Assembly (NCBI GenBank): GCA_030264375.1
Contig: JASCQW010000001.1
Coordinates: 71,330,264-71,394,225 of the forward strand
Source: Carcharhinus longimanus
Taxonomy: Eukaryota
Length of the DNA stretch: 63,962 bases
Reading direction: 5' to 3'
Numbering within the stretch: position 1 is the first letter of the stretch; each line of letters begins with the position of its first letter. The notes beneath the pieces were generated by a model. That model was not told the DNA's origin. It searched no databases and saw only the letters and a list, made by a program, of their open reading frames with translations. Positions 2,999-62,007 of the stretch are shown here, piece after piece. The position numbers and the translations under genes were made by a program.

Positions 2999-3011
2999 AT
3001 GATTTTAACAC
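2999..3011 (+). CDS. DLC1: DLC1 coding exon 1 (short isoform start, MILT+Q)
   Basis: ATG ATT TTA ACA C followed by donor GTAAGC at 3012. The phase-1 C joins AG of exon 2 to give MILTQIEAKEACDWLR, the N-terminus I recall for p122RhoGAP/DLC1 short isoforms. Confidence 0.88.
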
Positions 3012-3543
3012 GTAAGCATGTGATGTTTTTCCTTTGAGGTGCTTTCTCCCCCACAATATGATGTGGATAGTGAATTGACAGATCATTTGCAGTGAGCTGG
3101 ATCTTTAATTGGCTTGGATTGTGCGAACAGAGAGTTTGATCTTTACTGAGCTGTGCAGAAAATGCGATTAGGGTCATTGTGAAGTGGGTACATGATCAGA
3201 AGCAGGCACCTCAATCTGTGCTTTCCGTAGATTCCTAAATGCTCCGAGCTGCAGCGTTCCATTTTATAGCGAGATATCACTTCAAACGCATTCCTGCTTA
3301 CAGTATATACTTAGCGCCCCAACGCAATGGAGAGACAGGCGGCAGGGTTTAGTGTTTAAGACATTGTTTAAGATTTCTGTTTCCCTCTGTCTGGTTTGGT
3401 CATGGGGGTTGAATGTGAGCAGGAAGATGTGTTTGGGGGTGTGGAGGAATCATCTGCAAACTCTACCTGCGGCGAAAGATGTCAGATAAGGAGGAGTTGT
3501 GGAGCACGTCTCCCTGATCCCAGTGAGAGCAGCTCTCCCACTC

Positions 3544-3600
3544 CACACACACACAGACACATACAGACAGACATATATACACAGAGACACACACACCCAC
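3544..3600. repeat. Imperfect (CA)n microsatellite
   Basis: cacacacacacagacacatacagacagacatatatacacagagacacacacacccac. Confidence 0.85.
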
Positions 3601-3949
3601 TAGACTTTTTGCTCCAGCCTCCTGTGCCCTGTCTCATCCGGGATGTCATTCACTCTGGGAAAGCTCGTGTTTCGTTTACTGTTTTATTGAGATGATAAAA
3701 AAGTAGATTTAACAGAAAACCTGCAGGAAGTTAAATTCTCCTGCACTTGGGAGTGGAGGGTTTTTTTATTGTTGTTGCATTTTTTAAATATAAATTGAAG
3801 CGTTCTGCCTATGGATCTGATTATATTTGAATGGTGCGATAGTTTGAGAGAGCCTCTCAATTGGTTGCCGCACGGTGCAGGATGCGTGCCTGCTATCTGG
3901 GTTGGAGTTGCCAGTGGGAACTAAGACCTGGCGGAGTCTGCTTGTTTGG

Positions 3950-4213
3950 GGGCAACTGTCTGTGCTTTATATGCTCTGTCTGAGGCCAGAACTCTCCATT
4001 CACCTGACGAAGGGTCTAACCCGAAAGCTANNNNNNNNNNNNNNNNNNNNNNNNNNNNNNNNNNNNNNNNNNNNNNNNNNNNNNNNNNNNNNNNNNNNNN
4101 NNNNNNNNNNNNNNNNNNNNNNNNNNNNNNCGAAGGGTCTAACCCGAAAGCTTGTGAGTATATTATCAAATAAATAGGTTGGACTAAAACCTGGTGTTGT
4201 CAGACTTCTTACT
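3950..4213 (+). mobile_element. Penelope-like element terminal repeat, split by an N-gap
   Basis: CACCTGACGAAGGGTCTAACCCGAAAGCTTGTGAG...AAATAAATAGGTTGGACTAAAACCTGGTGTTGTCAGACTT. Near-identical to the minus-strand copy at 13632-13705, which is linked to GIY-YIG coding sequence. Confidence 0.8.
3998..4159 (+). ncRNA. Minimal type-I hammerhead ribozyme motif (reconstructed across the gap)
   Basis: Stem I ATTCAC(3998-4003)/GTGAGT(4154-4159); core CTGACGA(4004-4010); stem II GGGT-CTA-ACCC; GAAA (4023-4026 and 4146-4149); palindromic stem III AAGCTT. Confidence 0.65.
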
Positions 4214-4620
4214 GTGGTTGGGCCAGCAGCAGCGCTGCAGTCAGTGGCGGCCCCCTTTTGATCCCCGTCCCGTTTCCACCACCCCCCCCCGCCCCCAGCG
4301 GCACCTTCCCCCGCCCCCCACCGGCGACGCTCCATCCCCGGCGGGACTCCCCCGCCAGCCTCCTGTCGCCAGCTGCCTCAGCACTGGCATAGAGAGAGAG
4401 GTCAAACAAACAGGCGGCTTGCAGCATTGCCCCGCAGGCTCCAGCCTTCCTACCTCCCCATTGACACAGCTCAGAATCTGCACCCTGTCAGTCTGGCAGC
4501 CTGGCCACTGAGATCAAAGATTTGACAGCCAATTCTCTTCATCTTTCCAAGGAATGCATGTCTCCATTCAAAGTGAAAACTTGACAGTTCTCCACGTATA
4601 TCCATCCTAATGAAAGATAT

Positions 4621-4715
4621 AGAAAATGGAAGCCGGAGTAGACTATTCAGCCCTTCGTGCCTGTTTCACCATTCGTTTTGATCATAGTTTATCATCAAAT
4701 TCAATATCCTGATGC
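4621..4715 (-). mobile_element. CR1 LINE 3' end fragment
   Basis: GGAAGCCGGAGTAGACTATTCAGCCCTTCGTGCCTG matches the CR1 tails at 32110 and 52350. Confidence 0.6.
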
Positions 4716-6026
4716 TGCCTGTTTAGGCTTTAATTGCCCCACTCATGCTGTACCTTTGGGATTGGCACAGGAGAGACATTCTGTGCTATACTCAGTCCAA
4801 ACGTCTAATACATAGTTGTTGATTTTATAGAAATTGGTGACTCCTCCATTGGGAGAGCCCCAGGCTCCACTCCTACCAGTTCCTGGTAGTTAGCTGGTCT
4901 CACCTGGCGTGATGATAGAACTAGAAGCATTCGTCTCTGCACCCTGATTGTAGGAGAGGAAAATGTTCGAGTGGCCTTAACCGCTGCAAATTGCAAAAGG
5001 GCCCAATTTGTGTTAGGTCCAGAATACATTTGATTACTTCTCTTCCCCCGTGGTTCAGTAGCTGCATCCTTGCCTAGACTGATGTCCATAGAGTGGATGC
5101 TGACTAATGCTTGTAAAACTACGCAACAAAGCTTTCAGGAGGAGGGGACAACATTGGCAGAGAAAAAGGCAAAGAAATCAACTGGGAAATTGGAGTTTAG
5201 TAATTTGTTCATTTGAAAAAGATGCTCTTGCAATATTAATGCGATGTTTTGAAATGCTGCTGCAACTGTCACCTTTCGGTGTTTAGGAAAGGCCTTTCTG
5301 CCATCAGAAATTCTACCAACAATCAAAAATTGACAACACATTATGCCTAGATGTCAGTATGTGTGCACAGAACACTGCATTCACCTCACTTTAATACAGT
5401 GGAAATAGGCAGCATTGCTGCAAGTATGAAACACACACCTAACACTGTACCATCAGTGCTGTATAAATCGGCTATTAAAGTGGGATTATCATCTCTGTGA
5501 AAATGTCAGTCCAGTACTTTCCCACTTGTAATTCAGAGGCAAAAACTACCATTCACTTGTGATTAAATTTTGCATCAGAGTTCAGCATCACATCACTTCC
5601 ACATAAAGTCATTGCGATACAACTGTTCAACTCTTCGAAGCTTTTATGTCCCCAAAGTAATACCAATGGCTTTTTTAAATTCGCTCATATATTTGGTCAA
5701 CTGCACAAGTTCATATCTATAATTTTGCAAAGGTTCGTTACAGAAGTAATCAGCCAGTCAGATCCCTCCACCCCCTACCTGAATCAGCAATCAAAGAACA
5801 TTTACATATGGATGCTTTGACACATTACAGCATTTGGCAAATAAATCTCCACTAACAAAGCCATTGACAATAACAATAGCTAGTTCTAACCAATGATGTT
5901 GGGAAAATAATCAGCTGTTAGAGAAGCGTGTGTATAAAACATTTTCACAGCTCACTAATTAGTAATAGGTAGCAGTTTTAATTCTGTTGGATTTCAGTAA
6001 TGACTAGTTAAAATTGCCAGTTTTTA

Positions 6027-6333
6027 GTTTATTTATTAATGTTACAAATAGGCTTATATTAACACTGCAGTTAAGTTACTGTGAAAGTCCACTCGTCACC
6101 ACACTCCAGCCATTGCCTGTTTGGGTACACTGAGGGAGAATTTTGAATGGCCAATGCACCTAACTAGCACATCTTTCAGACTGTCGGAGAAAACCAGAGC
6201 ACCTGGAGGAAACCCATGCCGACATGGGGAGAATGTGCAGACTCTGCACAGGCAGTGACACAATCTGGGAATTGAACTCAGGTCCCTGGCACTGAGAGAC
6301 AGCAGTGCTAACCGCTGTGCCACCTTGCTGCCC
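6027..6333 (-). mobile_element. HE1/V-SINE-like SINE with alternative (type B) tail
   Basis: tRNA head and core as in the other copies; the tail is the reverse complement of ...CACAGTAACTT-A-TGCAGTGTTAAT...AATAAATAAAC. Confidence 0.85.
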
Positions 6334-6728
6334 AAATGTGAATTGTTTCAGAGTAATATTAGTATTAATATAAGTATTAGTTGAAAATGTCATCTGTAGT
6401 AAGACCTGCATTGCCCACATCACTATTAGAGGTAATGCTGCTATAATTTGCACAGAACAAAGCCTCCCACAAAACTTCATCTCATTACATAATTTATTTT
6501 GGAATTTGCATTTCTATTTTTTGTCAAAATCAATATAAAATATTGATTTTTGTTATTTATAATGTACTTGTGTCAATCACTGCATTCAGATATTTCTGTA
6601 ATGTATAAGACTTGGGCTCTTTTGATTACCTGCAAATCTCTATAATCTGCTGATGGTCCTTGCCATTGTGGCAGATAGCAAAGATTCCACTATAAAAGCA
6701 ATGTCACTACTATACGAAATACATGATT

Positions 6729-7170
6729 GCACGGTGGCGCAGTGGTTAGCTCTGCTACCTCAAGGACCCAGGTTCGATTCCTGGCTTGGGTCACTGTCTT
6801 TCCAGAGTCTGCACGTTCTCCCGTGTCTGCATGGGTTGCCTCTGGGCGCTCTGGTTTCCTCCCACAGTCCAAAAGACATGCTGGTTAGGTGCATTGGTCA
6901 TGCTAAACTATCCCTCAGTGTACCCAAACAGGCGTTGGCTGGGGTGTGGCGACTAAAGGATTTTCACAATAACTTCATTGCAGTGTTAATGTAAGCCTNN
7001 NNNNNNNNNNNNNNNNNNNNNNNNNNNNNNNNNNNNNNNNNNNNNNNNNNNNNNNNNNNNNNNNNNNNNNNNNNNNNNNNNNNNNNNNNNNNNNNNNNCG
7101 ACTAAAGGATTTTCACAATAACTTCATTGCAGTGTTAATGTAAGCCTACTTGTGACACTAATAAATAAAC
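6729..7170 (+). mobile_element. HE1/V-SINE-like SINE, type B tail, gap-interrupted
   Basis: GCACGGTGGCGCAGTGGTTAGC (A box) and GGTTCGATTCC (B box). About 49 nt of tail is duplicated on both sides of gap 6999-7098. Confidence 0.85.
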
Positions 7171-8536
7171 TACTTCATTCTTTTATATTGTAAATTCTCA
7201 GTATAAATGCACAGAAAAGTGATGACATTGCGCATCAGCTGATGGGGCTGTCCTAAAATAGTCTGTGGACGTGTCTTTAGTCAACATAGATGAATGCATT
7301 GGCTCTTTTTTATCTAGTGGCTGTACAGTAAAAATTAGCATAGAGCAGGCAAGCAGGTCAGTCAGAAGCTGGTGTATATAAATCTGTCACCACCATAAAA
7401 ATAATCTATTGGCTTGTATGTATTCAGTGGGTCCATCTGGCCTGCAGGCATCAGTATTCCATATTGTAGATAATTAGCAATTGCTATCTCCATTATTTCT
7501 CTTAAGTTTGTGTTTTCAGTGTCTTCTTTCAGTGTGTAACAGATGGCTGTGGCCTCCTGTAGCCTTCTGACTGGCCTTTATGATGGGAAGAATTTTGAGA
7601 CAGATTTAAGTCCTGCGCATGTGCAAGGTAGCCCAGCAGATGTGGTTTGATGTCAGCCCTGATCACTTGTGTTTGTTCAGGATGCATCTGCTGGGCTCTG
7701 CTTGCAATAGAGGGCTTTTTTTCTCTACAGGATGGTCCAGCATTGTAAACAGCAGTCTCATGCTTTATTTTGCCTCTTAGCAACAGGAAGAGAGCACAGG
7801 AAAGAAGGTAGTGCAAAGATCCTGAATGGCTCCAGACATCTTAAACTCACCATACAACATGCCAAACTCATCATGTCTATAAATAGCATGGAACAAAATA
7901 AGAATTGTAACAATCGATTCACTCATTTTTTTCTCTTATGTAAATACATGTGATTAGTCTCATATTAGGCTACAATGGTTTACTAGATAGCAGCAGAAAC
8001 CCACCTTATATTGTATTAAGTAGGTTGCACCACACCTAATGTAGTCTTCCAGACTAAATATAGCAGGAGTACACATGTACATACACACACATACCAGCTC
8101 ACTAACTCATGTTATGCTGCCTGTAACAGTTATCATATTTGAGAACTGACATTATCTTGAATGCTAGACGGTTATATGAGTGCATTATCAGGAATTATTA
8201 GTCATCACGAACAATTACGTTCTTCAAAATATGGTAACCAGTTACATTCTGCACCTAGACAAAAATGTAAAGCACAATAGTTACATTGTATTAAGCTCAA
8301 ATGTACATCAATACTCTTCTGTTCCTAATTATTTTCTATTTTGTTTGCTTGTCGTCTTAAATTGCTTAAAACGGCTTTACTTAGACATTTAAACTATGTA
8401 TCTCAATTTATTTTGTGCTCAATTTTATTTTCTTGCCTCTTCCTATTGTTTAAAATGTTTAGTTATTCAAACTAATTTTTTAGAAATCAATAATTGAAAG
8501 AGAAATTGAAGTGAGTTACAATTTTCAATCATAGGG

Positions 8537-8853
8537 GGATGGCACAGTGGCATAGTGGTTAGCACTCCTGCCTTACAGCACCAGGAACCCAGGTTTGATT
8601 CCCAGCTTGGGTCATTATCTGTGTGGAGTTTGCACATTCTCCCCATGCCTGCGTGGGTTTCCTCCGGTTCCTTCCCACAGTCTATAGGTGTGTGGGCTAG
8701 GTGGATTGGCCATGCTAAATTTCCCCTTAGTGTCAGCAGGACTAGCTAGGGTGAATGCATGGAAACATGGAGATAGGCCTGGATGGGATTGTGGTCGGTG
8801 CAGACTCAATGGGCCAAAAGGCCTCCTTCTGCACTGTAGGATTCTATGATTCT
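8537..8853 (+). mobile_element. HE1/V-SINE-like SINE with CR1-type tail
   Basis: Full head, core and tail ending GGATTCTATGATTCT. Confidence 0.88.
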
Positions 8854-10010
8854 TGAGTTATATATCTAATGATTTATCCTAAATCTGTTCAATATGTTCA
8901 GTATATTTGTCATGTTAATGATCAAAAATGGGCATGTATTTATTATGTTTGCCAACAAGTTAGTCTTTTTACATGTGATAGTGCAAAGAGTTTCTTTAAA
9001 GGATTCATTAAATTGCATTAGCACAGTTTTTCCAAATGCCTGATACTCTGTTGTTGTAGATTTGACAGGACAGTGTTAAATCTCGGAAATGTTACTCTAT
9101 TCCCATAGACACAGTAGTTTAATTTGAGGATGTTTTGGTTTAAACAATAGCAGACATTCTTGGCAAACCACATCCCAGCCTGAAACGTCTGTTAATTTGG
9201 AATGACCTGATGTTTTTTGTCTGGCACTGTACAATGAGTGGTTGGAGCTACCTATTGTTAAGTGCAGTATTTATGGTAAAACAATTAAGATTACATGAAT
9301 TAAGGTCAGCTTTGCACATTGATGTGGTACACGCTGCCAATAAATATCTTTTTAGCATTGTCTGCACAGAGACTACTTATGATAATTATCTATTGAGCTA
9401 AAAGCACATAGCTACTCAAAATACAATAAGGAAATCACACATTACACAGTGAATCTGCAAGAGGATACTGTCATGTGCTCCAGAATTTGAAAAATTATAT
9501 TCGTCAATGCACAAATGACCACCCTTGGGTTAAAGGTGCCCAAAGGAATCAAAATGTTTCCACTGTGCTTCCTAGTTTCATAAACTAAAATAGAACAGCA
9601 ATGGACAAGGTCAGAATAAGTTTAACATTGACTGGTGCAGGCTTTGAGTAACATAACTCATACATGTCTGCTCAAAATGAATGTTTCCCCTGGATTCGTC
9701 TATTTGTGTCAACCTCAAGGTTTCTGGTCTTTGATGAATGTTGTTTCCCAACAAAATCATTCACAATATTGAAACACAATGAAAATCAAAATAGTGCAAT
9801 TAGGCTGACTTTCAACTGCTAGCAATTTGTGAAAATAACACGGTGGTTTAAATTTTAGGAGTGTTTCTACTGCCCATAATAATGAGCTTATACTTGCTTC
9901 ACATATGAGTTAATGGATAAAATTAGATCACTTTTAAAAATATATATATAATTGCATACAAATGGGGTTTTCTTTATAGTACATGATCTTATAAGTGGAT
10001 TTTACTGTAC

Positions 10011-10320
10011 AGCGGCACGGTGGCACAGTGATTAGCACTGCTGCCTCACAGTGCCAGTGACACGGCTGCACTTCCCGGCTTGGGTTACTGACTGTACACA
10101 TTCTCCCCATATCTGCTTGGGTTTCCTCCGGGTGCTCTGGTTTCCTCCCACAGTCCAAAGATTATGCGGGTTAGGTGGATTGGTCATGCTAAATTGCCTC
10201 TTAGTGACAGGTGGATTAGCAGGGTAAATGCATGGGGTTATGGGGATAGGGCCTGAGTGGGATTGTGGACGGTGCAGACTCAAGGAGTCGAATGGCCTCC
10301 TGCTCTGTAGGATTCTATGA
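10011..10320 (+). mobile_element. HE1/V-SINE-like SINE with CR1-type tail
   Basis: GCGGCACGGTGGCACAGTGATTAGCACTGCTGCCTCACAG...GGATTCTATGA. Confidence 0.88.
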
Positions 10321-10884
10321 AATTCAAATGCTTTCACTGCAAATATAGTCAAATAGACCAGCACCCTTCCTTTTCAAAACTGGGATCCCACTGGCTATTT
10401 AAAGTTGAAGTGGCTGGTAATGGATTCAAGAAGTATAGCTTGCATTGAATTATTTTGTATTTTGGAAACAACTTTGTGTATCATGAATGTTCAGAAGTAC
10501 AACTTGGATTTGCTGCAGACTAGCTCTACTGTACATCCTTATCTTCGTGTTTGCCACTGAAGCACACACTTACGGTTATGATAAAACCATAACATACCCC
10601 ACATAGTGTTTATGCTTTGTGTTGCTAAATTGTGGGTATCTTACTGATTCTTGGTTTGTTGGAGGTTTTTTGGATTAGATGTGCTTTTTGGGTCAGCCAT
10701 GACTGAAAGACACAGAGTTAGATCCATTGTTATATGTAAAGGTCTCCAAATCAAACTGCATAGAAATCCAAACAGGTAGAGTTTCTGCAATGTAGATTGC
10801 ACTGTCGGCCCTATCAGGACAAACTGCCCAACCACACTTTACATGGATCTAGGATAGCTAAGATGTAGCTTTGTAGAATCAAAC

Positions 10885-11040
10885 ATCACAGACCTTCAAG
10901 TGGTTAGACTATGTGCATTGGTCCTGCTAAATTCTCCCACAGTGCACCTGAACAGGTGTTGGAATGTGACAATTAGGGGATTTTCACAATAATTTCATTG
11001 CAGTGAAGTAAACATACTTGTGACATTAATCAATAAACTT
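10885..11040 (+). mobile_element. 5'-truncated SINE, type B tail
   Basis: GTGCATTGGTCCTGCTAAATTCTCCC...GGATTTTCACAATAATTTCATTGCAGTG...AATAAAC. Confidence 0.75.
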
Positions 11041-13631
11041 AAGCTTAAAAGCGTGCACCTGGGTACTGCTGGGGTTTAACAAACTGAACTCATGCAGCTT
11101 ATCAGCACAGACTTCTATTCTTCCTATTGCTTATCCAACCAGTGTAACCCTATCAGTTAAAGACATTGGTTCACAGAGTTATGTGGAGCAGAGTAAGAAG
11201 GATCAAACGTCCCATGATGGGTTTATGTCTCCAGGTCCAAACACTGAGGCAGATTCAGTGGTCAAGCTTTTGACAGTGCTACTGATGGTTTAGCATTAGT
11301 TATGTACTTCCACCACGACCATAAGGAACATGCTTGACCTCAAAAAGATCTTGCATGGGGAGGAAAGCCACAAATTGGCTGTTAGATAAATGCAAATTTG
11401 AGACTTTCCCAGGCAGGCAGAAGATTCTAGCAGTGACTCATGAGTGGCCTAACTGCTGACTACAACCACAATAACCATTTCCATAATGTGAGAAGTGGCC
11501 CCAGGGTGCTTCACAGAGCTGTAACCAAAAGTCGGGACTTTGAATGAAATAAGGAGATATTAAGAAGGATAAAGCTTGTTCAATATAATGGATTTTAACA
11601 AGTGCTTTAAATGACAATATGGTGATAGAGATGTGGACGAGATTCGAACCAGAAAGCCTTATATGTCAAAGGATATTTGTAAAGCGTTGGTTTTCTTCCG
11701 CATTCTGCAATTAACTAAGGGTTTCCAAATAGGTCAATGTTTGGCAAACAATATTTCACTGTTGTGCTGATGTGGTCCAATGAAATAATTCATAGCAATC
11801 CAGTTCATGAAATAAACCTCTGATGATTAACTTCAACTAACTTTATCCCTTAAAACAGAACTCATCCAGAATTTTGATAATTTTCTGATAATTAACAAAG
11901 AAAATGCGCCCAGGTAAACTGCCTGAATGAATGGAAGCATTTACAGGAAACAGAAATGTTTTCCATTTATATCTTGTCTCTCCTGAAATCAGGATGTCCC
12001 AGAGCGTAGCCTGTGTGATATTTCTGAGGCCCGGCCATTGTAGTAAGAAACACAATGGCCAGTTTGTGAACAGCAAGATCCCAATATCAGCAGTGAGATA
12101 AATGACCAGATAATCAGCTGTGGGTTGAATGTCCTGTGAGTCAGAAGAGAACTTGCTACTGTTGAGCCAAGTAGGAAATCGATGCTTTCCGAAGTAGCTT
12201 TTCATCTTAAAAAAAGATTTTTCTGTGTAGCTTTATAAATGTATTTTAGCCTTTTACATAAAAAAAGAGTTTGGGTGTCATTTTGGCACGGCACAGTGAT
12301 GCTTCTATTTTTGTAACTCTGGCAGGATTCCCTTTTGCGCTCTCTTTCCTTTTCTGAAGGCACTGCTGTTTACTTTTCATGGACAGGCTTTCAATAGCTC
12401 ATCTGGTGACCACTGCTCACATTATAAACTTAGTCGGTCATTGTTGGCATGCTATTTTGGAAAACATCACAATTGAACCTTGCCTTCACGCAATCACTTC
12501 CCAGCAGAAGTGACTAGATAGGAATCGGAGCAAGAACCTTTACAGATTTCTCTCTCCCCACAGCAGTGTACTGAGACTAAAGGTCACACCCCAATGACTT
12601 GAGATTAATTAACTCCATACCAATCAAAGATCAATTGTGACATACTTTCCAGGTGGTCTTTATGCTCTATGGCTTTTGGAGAATTCACCAACAAATAATG
12701 TTGAGGCTATGATGAGAGTCAGTCTGTAGGAATATTGTGAATAAAAAAGATTCTGGAAATTTAAACATGAGTCAGTGACTGGCATTTTGACATTTACCTG
12801 CAATGCATAAGTCCTGTTAAAATCAGCCCAAAGAACTGCGATTAAACTGAATACATTGGAGGCCATCATGATACATATATCAGCATGGACTTTGTGTTCT
12901 ATTCCTCTGGCAGAAAATTGTCTTGCGTTGCTCGCTTAGAGGGACTCCAGTATTATCTACTGTAGTTTAAATCATGTAGCATCCCAATAATAACGTCTTC
13001 TGATTCTGTTAGCTCTCAACAGCTGCCCTCGTCACTGCCACCTCAGTATTACTTTGTATTCTGTAGGCAGATACTTCCTATTGTTCTGGGAGATACTGAG
13101 GGCAGCTAACGGTGGCCTGGTTTTAAGCCATTTGTTTAGCGTGTTGTTATTATGCAGTTTCTTACTGTTAACAAAGCCATTAGAACTGAGAAGTCTTCTG
13201 ACTTGTGGTAGCCAAACAAAAGCAAGCATTGTTGGTTGTGATATTCACACATTTGGATGCTGCTGCCACTGAGATTTTTCAGCAGAACTGTAGTTGTATA
13301 TTTGTTATCTGTAAGGAATGAGCAATTCCCTTCTGCAAACTTACGAACCAAAGGGAAAAAATGACACTTGCTTTCACAGACATAAACAGCTTTAGTTTTA
13401 AAGAGGGTGAGAACAACAGTTACGGAAAAGTCATTTCTTAATGTGCGCTTGCTGAAGTCTTGTTTATATCACTCTTTGACTGTTTAAGAAAGCTCCATGA
13501 GTCAAAAAATAGAGCAGAGGTATAGGGCACATCAACACAACTTGTGCAGGACAGTGCCAAAATGTTAGAAATCCCCTGTCCTCCAAAGTCATGACGTGGC
13601 CTCATGTGGGGAATTCTGTGGGAATCTTGGA

Positions 13632-13885
13632 AGTAAAAAGTCTGACAACACCAGGTTTTAGTCCAACCTATTTATTTGATAATATTCTCACAAGCTTTCG
13701 GGTTANNNNNNNNNNNNNNNNNNNNNNNNNNNNNNNNNNNNNNNNNNNNNNNNNNNNNNNNNNNNNNNNNNNNNNNNNNNNNNNNNNNNNNNNNNNNNNN
13801 NNNNNTTCGCCAACAGGAAGGGAACAGTCTTGCCTGGTAACTGTCGAGCGATGTTCATTCATCCGTTGTCGTAGCGTCTGCATGA
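13632..13885 (-). mobile_element. 5'-truncated Penelope-like retroelement (GIY-YIG remnant plus terminal repeat)
   Basis: Minus frame reads MQTLRQRMNEHRSTVTRQDCSLPVGE, the segment that follows YIGET in Penelope GIY-YIG endonucleases. After the gap comes the same terminal repeat as 4139-4213. Confidence 0.8.
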
Positions 13886-16800
13886 CCCACATCAATCTTG
13901 GAAGTGGCAGAGCCTTCCCCTGCCCCACACTGAGTCACGCAGTATCAATGGGGTTGGGTCAGGATACTCAGGATTCCCAATCACGGGGTTTCCCCATTTC
14001 TGGCCCTCAGAGGAAAGTGGCATAGAATCAGGAGTGGTAGCAACCAAACTGCAGAATTGGAAACCCACCTGGTGAGGGCATAGGAGAGGCAATGAGGGCT
14101 CAGGCTGGAATTGTTGCAAAGTGGAGGCAAAGTTTTTGCATATATTTTGTACCCATTAAAAGATTTCTGTTTGCAATTTCCAGAGGGAGACTCAGCAACT
14201 TGCAAAGTCTCATTACCACCCCAGATTGTGAAGCAGCTAGGTGCTCTAGATGCACCCACCATTGCCGTCCTAGATAAGGAGCTTCCTCATAGTTACCATA
14301 AGGCTCAATCCCTGTTTAACTCATGAGATTGCTGGCTCACTCATTTTCAGGCTGTTGTATTGAATTGAAAATGAACCATTTTTTCAAATATGAAATCACA
14401 ATTTATCCTGCCCCTACTTCCAGTTAGTTTTGGATAGAGAGCATTCAACCTGGGCTGATCTGCATGCTGCTTCCAAATCACCAATTGAGATGCGCGCATT
14501 ACAGAATGAGTTTGCCACAGAGCGTGAGGAGTTTTAACTGTGATGAGTTGTGCCTGGAGGATCTCCAATTATCAGCACTGTTTCAAAATAAAACCTTTAA
14601 CTGTGGGACAAAACTTAAACCTTGATATGAAAAAAATAGCGCTGCACGAGATATTGTTCTTAAATACTGCACACTATAGAACTTATCTTTCCCTAATTGG
14701 TAGCTATGACCTTGCTAACTGTGCTCTGAATGACTCTTTTTCATTCCTAGATGACAAAGACAGTAAACATTCTTTCTTTCTGCCTACTCTTGTCGTACAC
14801 TAGCAAACTGAATTTTAACAATAGTTAGTTATTCGTTGCAATTTTTTTCCTTGAATTCTCCCTGAAACATAGGAGTGGTTTTATGGTCCTGCTACCAGCG
14901 TATTTGAAGGTGGGGGTGGAGGGATATGTAAAGTAAAGCAAGTGGCCAGCCCACCAACTTCGCATCCACCCTGACCTGTGCCCGATATTAGATGGGTAAG
15001 GTGTCAGGCATTCTGTCTGCCCTTCGACCAATTGAGGCCCCTAACTAGACAATTAACTGCCTCTTAAGTGCCTCTGTCCACCTCTGTTGCAATATTTCGA
15101 CCTTAAGATGGAAGGAAGGCACCTAGCTGGCAGCTATGGCACTGTAGACTGTCAGGAAGGAGACATTGCTATCTGCATGGGGGATACCCAATAATCATCA
15201 GGGTCACCCCACCCCAGGATTATACCCCCATTTGTGTCTCTTAAAACACAACACCCTCCCTCCAACCCTCTCTTGCTGCTCACCCAAAATGCTCGGTTTA
15301 CCTTCAAATTGGGAGACATTGATCTGGGTTGACCCAGATCTTCTGGTCTCTGAATAGGCAGAGACACAAAGTATGTGCAGGATCCACTGGAAGTCCCAAC
15401 CAAGGAACATACTCAGTACCTATGTGGTAAATTTAATCTTCTGATTGCTGGTGTTACCTTGCCAGGATTGCTCCATGATTAACCAAAACCATGCAGATTT
15501 AAGGAGCTCACTCTGTATTTACCCGGTTTTTACATAGATTTATTGAGGAATTTTCAGAGCAGGTATAAAACCAGCTAAATTCTAAGTAAATCACTAAGTA
15601 AGTGTTCAATTAAGGCCACCCTCAGCATAATATCACTGCAGGGCAGCTGGATTTAAAGTCGGCAAGATGCCGACTTGGAGAGGGGCCTCCCTCCATTCTA
15701 AGCCCACCCTATATCTGATCCCTGGTATCTTGCCCTCATTTCCATTCATCAAATGTGTGACCAGAGAGTGGGCTACTTAACTTAGGAAATTACAGTCAAA
15801 GTCAGACTGATTCCCACCAGATGTCCATGTACACAATTCTGTCCACCAATAGAGCTTGGTACAGTCCGTGGTGTGTGCAGAGTAAGCTGATCTCAGTTAT
15901 AGACATAATTAGCTTGCACGCTCCCGGGCTTAAGGGAAAAAATGGCTGCCAATCCATCTTATTAACATTATCTAGTTTAGTGACCCCTGCAATTGGCCTC
16001 AATAGCCCTGGGCTTGGGAGTGGTGAAATCAGCCAGGATTCTAGTTCCAGATCACTGTCTAGTGAGTCCTGTCAGCAAGTGGCCACGGTTGCATGTCAGT
16101 TGTGTCAATGTCTGCTTTCTGACAGGATTCACACAATAGTTCTGGTTCAGTGTTGTTTCCTCTTGTCCCCGTGGTCAGAAAATTGCTAGCTCTCTCAAGC
16201 TGAAGCAATGCTTGAACAAAGTACTAGAGAGCTGCGAGTGCTTATAGCGTAATGAAAAACTATCTTCAGGTGAGACCAGGTAAGAGGAAATAAAATTTAG
16301 CAGGACAAAAAACCACATTACTCCAGCAAAATCGCATTTACCAACTTGGCAAACCTTCCAGAGCATACTGTCATGGAACTGAACGCATGAAAACTTCCCA
16401 ATGGAGTATAGTATCCATTTAAGCAAAACAGTGAATGGCTCTTCAGAGTTGGCTGTATCTATAAGGCAGAAAATGAATGCCAAAAATGTTGCAGTTGGCC
16501 AACTGATTGACAAGTAGCATTATCTTCAGAGCAAAGCTTTGAAGAATGCAGAGGCTGTGAAGCAGGAGATATGGGTGAAGTAGGTGGCAAAATGCTCCAC
16601 TTGCTTGTGTCTAATGAAGCTGTGTGTTCTGCTCCAATGGGAGGACTAAATGGGGCCAAGGCTGGTTAAATGCCAGGAATTCATAGTTGCTTGCCACCTG
16701 TAATCTTGATTTGACAATGTGTGAAAGAGTGAGCTATGATCATTTGGCAGCATACAGCAGATCTGCTTGAGGTAATCTATTGCAGGCTCATTCCTTCCAT

Positions 16801-18792
16801 TCAGTTTATTCTGCGAAACCACTATATTTACTACTCAGCTGTTAACTGCTGGAAATTTTACTTAAGAGTGTTGAAATGATGCTGTTTTGCTTCCAATTGT
16901 TGTTTAATTAGTCAACACAGAAGTGAGTGTCACTAAAATGGTTAAAAGGAAGGAGGCAGAGTACCCATACTGTAATGCATTACTGCAAAGCATTCTTTCA
17001 GAATAAACTCCAGGACTCTTATTTTTCCCTTTCCTGCTGTAAGGATTGGACCTAAAAGAAAAGGGACTTGTTTAGAGGAAGGAGGGAATAAAATTGAACG
17101 TTGAAAGCTTTTATTAATTCAGAAACATTTTGAAATAATTTGAACAGTTGTACAATTGTTATCACATTATTCCTCAATGTAGGAAGGCTGACTAATTCAG
17201 ATTGTAATATAATTCTATGTTGCACTGATGACGTACTTGAGATGAAAGATATATTAAAATACAGTAACCTCCAGTGCAGAGATTGAATAGTGCCTCAGTG
17301 TCCTGGTTGTTGGTGGCCTTTAACTTTCAGAGTATTACGCTTAGTAGACATTCCATTCTGAGGAGACTAGCACTGCCAAGGGATTGTGTGATTTAATGTT
17401 TTAATTCCCTGTATGCACACTGTCAGTGCTGGTTACCACCATAGGAAGGAAGTTTCCCTGATCTCTGAAAGGACCATTGGGTTTCGCTATAATAATATAT
17501 TAAAAGATTACAAATCCCCAAACATGATATTATGTTTGTACACACTAGCAGTACAGCATTAGAAATCAGCGCAGGATTATAGCCCTCTGAGCGCAGTCAG
17601 GCATATCTATTTCTGTGGAAATGGAAAAGACCCTCTGCTCCATCAAATCAAGTCTGTCCCACACCATTGTGATAATTTAAGTAGTAATTATATGCCCTCC
17701 ATTCATAAAATGTAAAGGTGTCAATTGTGTTTCAATGGTCAATTTTAATCCTTATTTTCAGTTTCAATTTCTTGAAAAACAGTGAATGCTAAGCAGGAGG
17801 GGAATGTTTAAAATGAAGACTAGGTTGGAAAATGAAAGTAGTCTAAGGAGTTTTTAAAGCAGAGCGAGTGAATAGAGGGAGCAGGACTGTAGTGGTTACA
17901 TTTGGCAACATCAATAATGAAGAACTGAAAAGTGGTGAGAAGCTCAGTATTAGAGGCATGGAGGGGGTATGCAGGAAATTTAAAACTAGGCCAAAATTTT
18001 TGAGTCACCCCTCTAGGGTTTCCATAGTGTCTAAGCCGAGAGAGAGCAAGAAAGTCGGGAGTAGCATTCAGCCCACCCCTCATCGCCAAACTTTACATTA
18101 CAGATATAGTTACCCCTTCAAAAAGCCAGCAGCAGCTTTGGGCCCTTGCAGTATGTCTCTCTGTAGTCAAGTTACTAGAGAGAATGGGCCTGATTTTAAC
18201 TTGGTGCAAATGAGCAGATTTGAATAATTTAAAATCTTGCCTCAAGACAGTGGCCCTGAGTGGTCCCACCTGACCCAGCTCCTGCCAGCAGCAGAAAAAT
18301 CCTGAGATTTTACAACTCTCCCACAGGACTGAGAGGAAAGTTGAATTTGACTGAGAAATAATGGGTGATAAATGATGTGTCGGGGTTCACAGCTGGCTAG
18401 AGAGCTGGCGAAAGACCAACACTGCCTCTTCTCAAGATGGCCTACAAAATCACATGCCTGTCAGGCTTTGAGGAACCCACTGGGTGGACCTTCCTCTGGA
18501 ACCAGGTCTCTGGGGTGGAAGTCCCCACCTAGCAAGAGTTACCAGCTAGTCAGCAGCTGGCAGCTCTTGCACGTAACAGGCGGCCGTGATTGCTGCTAGA
18601 AAAACATCCCCCCCCCACCCAGGGTGCCAGGGATCATGGACAAAGGGAAAGTAATATCACCTTAAGTGGCACTGTGTCGATTTTTCCTCTCATGTTGCTT
18701 CTGTGAAGCATGTGAGACATTTTATTATATTAAAGGCACCAAATCAATGCAAGCTTTGTTGTTAACTATGAGATGTTCTTTTTCCTTTTTAG

Positions 18793-18864
18793 AGATTGAG
18801 GCCAAGGAGGCATGTGATTGGCTGCGGGCAGCAGGGTTCCCCCAATATGCCCAGCTGTATGAAG
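18793..18864 (+). CDS. DLC1: DLC1 exon 2 (SAM domain)
   Basis: Acceptor tttccttttttag, IEAKEACDWLRAAGFPQYAQLYE, donor GTGAGG; 72 nt, phase 1-1. Confidence 0.97.
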
Positions 18865-60800: not shown

Positions 60801-61128
60801 AGTTGCATCTCTGTCTTCTGTATGTGAACAATAAATTTATAATTATTTTTCTGCCTGTGCAACAAGATGGCACCTTTATAAGCCAGAGAATGGCCCATCC
60901 TTGCAAAATGTAGATGGTGTGATGGCTTCTTCTTCAGCACAGCCAAGTAGCTCTGATAGGACTGGCAAAGCTATATAATTAGGTAATGTTAGTCCACCAC
61001 AGATGGAGGNNNNNNNNNNNNNNNNNNNNNNNNNNNNNNNNNNNNNNNNNNNNNNNNNNNNNNNNNNNNNNNNNNNNNNNNNNNNNNNNNNNNNNNNNNN
61101 NNNNNNNNNTGTTCTATGTTCTAAATAC

Positions 61129-61577
61129 CTTCAGCAGAGTCGTGCAGCTGTATCTCAGTGAAGTCTTCCTTCTCAAAGTTCTTCGCTTTCTTCAAGTTTC
61201 CAGGGGACAAGGGGGGATCAGTGGGGATCACGGACATGGACTGGGAGAGGGACGTGCGCTGTAGGTTGGATTTCGGGAACAACTTCTTCAGTTTGGACTT
61301 CTTCTTCTTGTCCGCCGTCTCGGCGACTGCTGTGTCATCGTCGCTGTCCCCTGGGACGTTGAGGCTGGGGACGATGGCTGATGCTGAGTCAGAGAAGCCA
61401 TCTTTCTTCTTCCCCTTGAATTTGTCCTTCAGCCGCCCCAGAGTCGAGCGGGATTTGTCCTTCATCGACAGGTCAAACATGCTGGCTGTCATGTTGTTCC
61501 GCACAAACTGGATGTCTGCCTCAATTTCCCCTCTTTCCTTCTCCTTCTTCCCATTCTTGGACTGTAGCTTGTACCAC
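61129..61577 (-). CDS. RAB11FIP1: Rab11 family-interacting protein 1, internal exon (end of C2 domain and following region)
   Basis: Minus strand: poly-C/tttaag acceptor, WYKLQSKNGKKEKERGEIEADIQFVRNNMTASMFDLSMKDKSR...KSNLQRTSLSQSMSVIPT...LHDSAE, donor GTATTT; 449 nt, open frame. DIQF-RNNMTASMF and KSNLQ-T-LSQSMSV favour FIP1 over FIP2 or FIP5. Confidence 0.88.
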
Positions 61578-62007
61578 CTTAAAGGGGGGGGGGGGGAAAG
61601 AGGGCAGAATCCCATTAGCATCAACTTGCCCTAGCAAATGCAAAACTCATACCACATTAAAAACATGAAATAAAATGAGCAAAAAAAATTGCATTTAATA
61701 AATGCAAGTTGACCAACCGAGAAAAGGTCAAAAGAAATTACTTCCAGTATAAGTGGGGTGACCATTAGGGAAGCACATTGGCCTGAATTCTGTGATTCCA
61801 TACTCCCAATAGGAAGCCACACTCACATTTCTTAAAATATTCCATCTTTTTCAGCATCTGCTCCTACCCTACAGGCAATGTACATGGGATTGAACCTATT
61901 ACCATCTGCTGTCACAATGATGCACTAACATTTTCTCAGGCGGAGATTCTCGACCTTATTGTTTTCCATGTTATATAATTTTGACCTATATAGTTAATGT
62001 TTATTTA

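Follow-up and report, generated by a model that had tools for sequence, protein, structure and literature searches.

The hammerhead ribozyme motif described here sits in the 3' end (pLTR) of a Penelope-like retrotransposon (PLE), within the first intron of a shark DLC1-type gene. With a probability of roughly 80%, we read the locus as the 5'-truncated 3' end of such an element, absent in relatives, likely comprising one copy of ~140 nt that is interrupted by an assembly gap and probably without catalytic activity in the pre-mRNA of the DLC1-type gene. The motif was confirmed on the sense strand of the window (the whole stretch of 63,962 nucleotides analysed), at the coordinates assigned to it in a preliminary description, and it is complete only when read across a 100-N gap.

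The hammerhead motif and its host gene

At the locus, the core CUGANGA and GAAA occur in type-I order, and in intact sibling copies of the same family they are contiguous. The parts of the motif and its immediate surroundings are as follows.

3998-4003, plus strand: hammerhead stem I, 5' strand (sequence; pair probability 0.67-1.0 in 39-nt intact siblings)
4004-4010, plus strand: catalytic core C3-A9 (sequence; published consensus)
4011, plus strand: extra A between positions 9 and 10.1 (sequence; published consensus)
4012-4015/4019-4022, plus strand: stem II, 4 bp (G10.1-C11.1) with a 3-nt loop (covariation, 70 copies)
4023-4026, plus strand: GAAA left of the gap (sequence)
4027-4029, plus strand: GCU left of the gap (sequence)
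4026-4029 and again 4149-4152, plus strand: palindromic AGCU (sequence)
4030, plus strand: position 17, A on the left contig (sequence; family copies)
4031-4130, no strand: 100-N placeholder gap, whose true size may differ; its ends most likely overlap by 23 nt (sequence; sibling gaps)
4146-4149, plus strand: GAAA right of the gap (sequence)
4150-4152, plus strand: GCU right of the gap (sequence)
4153, plus strand: position 17, U on the right contig, with the predicted cut after it (sequence)
4154-4159, plus strand: stem I, 3' strand (sequence)
4169-4174, plus strand: AATAAA hexamer with a GU-rich stretch at ~4193-4200, a putative cryptic poly(A) signal (54 of 69 copies carry AATAAA no more than 25 nt from the motif)

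The order of core, stems I and II, GAAA and GCU proposed in the preliminary description is seen directly in the sequence, and the exact 31-nt core with U17 was found in 266 genome copies versus none for the reversed control. Its assignment to a minimal type-I hammerhead on a Penelope-like element, on the sense strand and ~1 kb into intron 1, was also supported. The motif has no loop 3, and its palindrome is AGCU at 15.1-16.1. As had been suggested, stem III would need a partner copy, and the cut is predicted after 4153. On the other hand, the palindrome earlier taken as AAGCUU is present, but its pairing unit is the 4-nt AGCU; in standard hammerhead numbering, AAGCUU opens with core A14 and closes with the cleavage nucleotide.

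Position 17 is discordant between the gap ends (A at 4030 versus U at 4153), and the cleavage triplet at the locus would be CUA or CUU, both of the N-U-H form. The A at 4030 was considered as a sequencing error and this was dropped, given the 90 genome copies that carry A17. It should be noted that U17 hammerheads cleave more slowly than those with C17 or A17. N-U-G triplets are described in the literature as not cleavable by hammerheads, and a literature search found no published rates for CUU or CUA. Both the extra A and the CUU triplet had been put forward as non-canonical features that may reduce activity. The U at the right end stands, but the left end gives CUA, and CUU fits the published consensus (turtle GCUU). 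The extra A is conserved in the class (Cervera and De la Pena) and was present in 10,373 of the 10,576 U17 copies of a broad motif, the other 203 having another base at this position; it is known from the literature to cause a moderate rate drop in a viroid hammerhead, a subject absent from the passages of PMC2632901 examined. Because both are part of the published minimal hammerhead (min-HHR) consensus, the extra A and U17 are normal for the class. The hammerhead search envisaged earlier was negative: there was no Rfam match at gathering score in the 64-kb window, and four intact sibling loci searched up to E 10 gave no hammerhead. Weak microRNA-like Rfam matches in sibling loci were rejected as inverted repeats.

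The sequence indicates a host gene of the DLC1/STARD13 family, likely DLC1 itself. DLC1 was the sole match of the RhoGAP exon (E 1.2e-16), while the SAM exon matched both STARD13 and DLC1, and one DLC1 exon frame searched against Pfam gave nothing at cut-off. The phase-1 splice from 3011 to 18793 yields Q before IEAKEAC, as in DLC1 chains and unlike STARD13. Intron 1 spans 3012-18792 (15.8 kb), with the element ~1 kb in on the sense strand. A minus-strand open frame at 61121-61630 resembles an exon of a neighbouring gene, presumably RAB11FIP-like.

Identity of the element and age of the insertion

The features of the host exon, the insertion and a second copy in the same intron are listed below.

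2999-3011, plus strand: end of the coding part of exon 1 in the short DLC1-type isoform, with ATG at 2999 and donor GT at 3012 (sequence; spliced Q-IEAKEAC matches DLC1 chains)
3944-3953, plus strand: imperfect target-site duplication, 10 nt (empty allele; comparison with 4217-4223)
3954-4030, plus strand: left part of the 5'-truncated pLTR copy (shared by siblings; family contigs extend upstream of 3954)
4131-4216, plus strand: right part of the pLTR copy, ending at the tail-less end point (sequence, siblings)
13632-13705, minus strand: second copy of the locus subfamily within intron 1, 97% identical to 4140-4213 (sequence, profile search)
13806-13885, minus strand: GIY-YIG endonuclease fragment of the second copy, beyond gap 13706-13805 (translation, siblings)

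Siblings repeat the layout with an endonuclease peptide upstream of the ribozyme. The two are linked without a gap in four related copies, over 391-418 nt (L109 and L121 are the same place); for the exact subfamily of the locus, the link to the reverse transcriptase (RT) or the endonuclease (EN) is seen across gaps only. The frames of related copies, read by eye, contain RT and thumb, a linker of the CX4CxxC form and a GIY-YIG domain with CCHH, RT being seen only as fragments. Atlas gave a GIY-YIG match (0.96), whereas Pfam assigned no family at cut-off to four element proteins, and a PDB search with an RT fragment found nothing. The element fits a Neptune-type rather than a Poseidon PLE, a placement made from the linker motif only: Neptune-type EN+ PLEs share the C-terminal GIY-YIG with CCHH and the CX4CxxC linker (Craig et al. 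2021, PMC8557442), and the same source reports this type of linker as missing from Penelope/Poseidon.

The 36 gap-free siblings also carry features of EN+ PLEs, namely a tail, inverted 5' copies and a variable target duplication. Their end points lie near that of the locus copy in 25 and ~35 nt further in 11 (the tail signature), flanking duplications of 7-13 nt were found in 25, and 5 have an inverted 5' part. In many siblings (L004, L010, L011, L026, L027 and L207), such inverted parts join very close to stem I of the ribozyme. Shared with Neptune-type PLEs are 5' truncation, inverted 5' copies, an optional tail of 30-40 bp and trouble in short-read assembly (PMC8557442); unlike full elements of this type, the locus copy has no coding sequence. 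A different high-copy repeat, with a depth peak in four runs, was observed at ~4596-4760.

The insertion consists of 3954-4216 plus the imperfect 10-nt target duplication. In contigs of runs X2, X6, X7, X9 and X12 (four studies, related genomes), 3943 is followed immediately by 4217; the junction lies outside the contigs of X5 and X8, so that five of the seven other runs were informative. The family is abundant in all of these runs. Because the orthologous site is empty in five runs from four studies, the insertion is young and is not a conserved intronic ribozyme. The duplication at 3944-3953 has the letters of 4217-4223 with a longer T run and a longer G run, as if by slippage during fill-in. 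From known PLE biology, together with the observed identity of the element and the empty site, we infer that the RT and GIY-YIG endonuclease of a parent element inserted a copy of just the final part of its RNA at this site in the intron, and that this early stop would have left the imperfect 10-nt duplication.

One copy or two across the assembly gap

The sequence makes it very probable that a single copy of ~140 nt is split by the gap. The same 22 nt lie on both flanks, 4008-4029 being identical to 4131-4152, which agrees with the preliminary description; of the two readings given there, one split copy or a tandem pair, the former was favoured and the latter became less likely, since a direct tandem core was found in none of the 36 gap-free siblings, which were chosen via intact matches and are therefore biased toward short single copies. 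Among the 69 siblings examined, 5 of the 20 100-N gaps that adjoin a core have overlapping ends (11-30 nt, at differing offsets), and further sibling gaps skip merely a few bases. Another 100-N gap in the window (6999-7098), inside a different repeat, has ends that overlap by 49 nt. A contig of run X1, which may be the source sample, is unbroken from the flank into the element up to 3980; none of the X1 contigs bridges the element, the break falling inside the repeat.

Two linked haplotypes, A17 and U17, exist within the young subfamily; they differ in a few flanking markers, and intermediates are present. At the locus, the A17 haplotype is matched by the left marker and by GAGU on the right (GAGU was found in 27 of 28 readable A17 copies versus 5 of 66 other U17 copies), but the right gap end carries U17-type letters, and intermediate haplotypes exist.

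The main alternative is that the gap hides a partial tandem, composed of an A17 pLTR, possibly coding sequence and then a U17 pLTR, whose cis double hammerhead would cut the intron at a low rate. We regard it as unlikely. The A/U discordance at position 17, both letters being real family variants, speaks for it, as does the fact that 100-N gaps elsewhere conceal hundreds of bases: that of the second copy (13706-13805) stands for ~380-400 nt, judged by gap-free relatives. Same-strand neighbours do occur, with four gap-free pairs of different subfamilies 323-1056 nt apart (among 215 loci), plus L092, and the overlap of the ends would also arise if the contigs ran into two different pLTRs. In addition, PLEs typically form partial tandems (Craig et al. 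2021, PMC8557442). However, no gap-free sibling is a direct tandem (0/36), end overlaps are frequent at sibling gaps and also seen at gap 6999-7098, which is unrelated, both markers (the left one and GAGU) fit one haplotype, and dimers cleave weakly in vitro anyway (PMC4209133).

The family in the genome

Counts cover the 2.68-Gb genome. Besides the U17 core, a 28-nt form with a base other than U at position 17 was found in 94 copies (90 with A, including the left half of the locus, 3 with G and 1 with C), and in none for the reversed control. The 90 nt right of the gap gave 965 candidates, and the 40 that were scored match over their full length with 96-100% identity. With the broad motif, A or C at position 17 occurred in 10,235 copies, and G in only 420 of 21,231 (2%); these counts reflect a few founder subfamilies rather than independent events. 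Some U17 copies may be the product of CpG decay of C17. In some copies (L039, L154 and L180), GCTTGTG after the cleavage site is doubled in a row.

Stem II was examined in 70 copies from one contig, the first of those matching the broad U17 pattern, with one row skipped. Pairs at positions 1-4 were formed in 70, 67, 70 and 58 of these copies, and the register that leaves the extra A unpaired gave 265 of 280 pairs, versus 195 otherwise. At the G10.1-C11.1 position, G-C was present in 46 copies, G-U in 23 and A-U in 1, and changes on both sides (G-C/A-U exchanges) were found at 10.2, 10.3 and 10.4. In 57 distinct stems, 149 of 171 cells were Watson-Crick pairs, compared with a mean of 92 and a maximum of 115 in 10,000 shuffles; since the copies are related, no probability is attached to this difference. 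Because stem II covaries and G17 is rare, the family looks to be under selection as a hammerhead.

Comparison with known hammerheads

The motif is an ordinary member of the known PLE min-HHR class. According to Cervera and De la Pena (2014; PMC4209133), metazoan PLE min-HHRs conserve an extra nucleotide H between 9 and 10.1, and their consensus also contains G10.1-C11.1, a palindromic 15.2-16.2 and N-U-H. The shark locus shares the core, the extra nucleotide, G10.1-C11.1, the lack of loop 3, the palindrome and N-U-H with this class, as well as an AU-rich 3' flank and mostly single dispersed copies. In that study, the row for Chrysemys picta agrees with the locus in the extra A and in GCUU. With 4 bp, stem II is shorter here than in the min-HHR families of Schistosoma (7-8 bp), and the ~21,000 motifs compare with ~4,000 in coelacanth and ~9,000 in Xenopus, although search methods differ. 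Supplement file 2 of this paper lists no shark motif, and the literature search found nothing on shark Penelope hammerheads (in the one review returned, 'shark' denoted a shape).

A related case that was assayed is the Poseidon PAc ribozyme of Anolis carolinensis (Frangieh et al. 2024, PMC11167929), which, as here, is a vertebrate pLTR hammerhead beside a tail with two end points. It belongs to a different clade, and the present locus is known from sequence. PAc cuts only with the protein, its cutting is dispensable for insertion in vitro, and the Anolis ribozyme leaves no ends in RNA-seq (PMC11167929). Non-LTR retrozymes (bioRxiv 10.64898/2026.07.22.740005), which also carry hammerheads, derive from PLEs and have been reported in one cartilaginous fish, are tandem arrays, whereas the gap-free siblings examined here are single or inverted stubs (0/36 with a direct tandem), the locus itself being split by its gap. 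The RECK/DTNB hammerheads of amniotes and CPEB3 (PMC6155905, PMC10919898) are likewise intronic ribozyme motifs on the sense strand. They are conserved at orthologous sites in many species, in contrast to the locus motif, which is missing in close relatives and has no stem III alone.

Expected activity and effect on the host transcript

In a tandem transcript of the parent element, two copies would pair via AGCU to form stem III and be cut after N-U-H, probably aided by the protein of the element. We infer this cleavage from published PLE ribozymes, the selection on the family being visible in the genome itself. A lone copy would fold stems I and II, without stem III or a nearby sense partner, and an antisense sibling could pair with it. 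The intron is therefore most likely spliced out uncut.

The computed folds are in line with this picture, it being noted that energies were computed on siblings and omit tertiary contacts of the core. Monomers of 39-nt intact siblings fold stems I and II. The double hammerhead (-17.3 kcal/mol for U17 and -18.3 for A17) was no more stable than two monomers (-19.8 and -20.2 kcal/mol), and in the 122-nt context of the closest sibling, stem probabilities fall to ~0.2. Lunse et al., a paper cited in a review, reportedly deals with dimers of PLE hammerheads. In PMC4209133, the min-HHR monomer was inactive and the dimer weak.

A profile search found no other sense copy in the 64-kb window. In the 200 kb upstream there were 17 profile matches (~1 per 12 kb), 6 of them on the plus strand, and none of the 17 had an intact core plus palindrome when inspected by eye. 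The antisense copy at 13632-13705 could pair with the sense copy across the cleavage site, in a duplex of 72 bp (-118.5 kcal/mol), and thereby mask the ribozyme. It is transcribed 9.5 kb later, so it is unable to block early cleavage. The sense and antisense copies, inverted with respect to each other at a distance of 9.5 kb, could yield dsRNA and be a substrate for editing. The preliminary description had implied an effect on the DLC1 pre-mRNA, which found no support: the insertion is missing in relatives, the window offers no sense partner and published monomers are uncleaved.

A single copy might also act on the host by another route, with a small effect via a cryptic poly(A) site, a cryptic donor GTGAGT (4154) or an edited duplex of the inverted copies. 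We consider this improbable. The AATAAA at 4169 is kept in 54 of 69 family copies, the 72-bp duplex with 13632-13705 is feasible, and the stem I 3' strand (4154-4159) reads GTGAGT, which is the splice-donor consensus; however, the three bases after GTG vary by subfamily (AGT in 18 of 69), and with about one related copy in every 12 kb upstream, such insertions appear to be tolerated. Equally doubtful is an extended form of the tandem, in which a hidden A17 and U17 pair would provide one lineage with a new cis double hammerhead ~1 kb into intron 1 that, with the poly(A) signal, cuts nascent RNA and lowers the short isoform; more broadly, the ~21,000 copies, with their common stem I ends and AGCU, could cross-dimerise within long pre-mRNAs and, when sense-oriented, be disfavoured by selection. 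If the tandem reading were true, the empty alleles in close relatives would serve as natural controls. Least credible of all is the domestication of the motif as a regulatory ribozyme of the intron, as with the RECK hammerhead or CPEB3: although the motif has an intact core, is sense-oriented and lies close to the 5' end of a long intron, and domestication of such ribozymes has been described (PMC6155905, PMC10919898), the orthologous site is empty in all five junction-covering runs, the 96-100% identity to dispersed siblings means that intactness reflects youth, and there is neither an own stem III nor an Rfam hammerhead match.

Significance

Read as one truncated and likely silent copy, the single locus carries little weight, being one of many retrotransposon stubs that occur about once per 12 kb upstream of the window. 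On the other hand, the ~21,000 motifs of the family, with U, A or C at position 17 but G avoided and with a covarying stem II, provide good sequence evidence for cutting in the life cycle of the element, still unproven in vivo. The A17 and U17 haplotypes form a natural pair for comparing cleavage rates, and a young copy on the sense strand, whose site is empty in relatives, offers a convenient test of effects on host transcripts.
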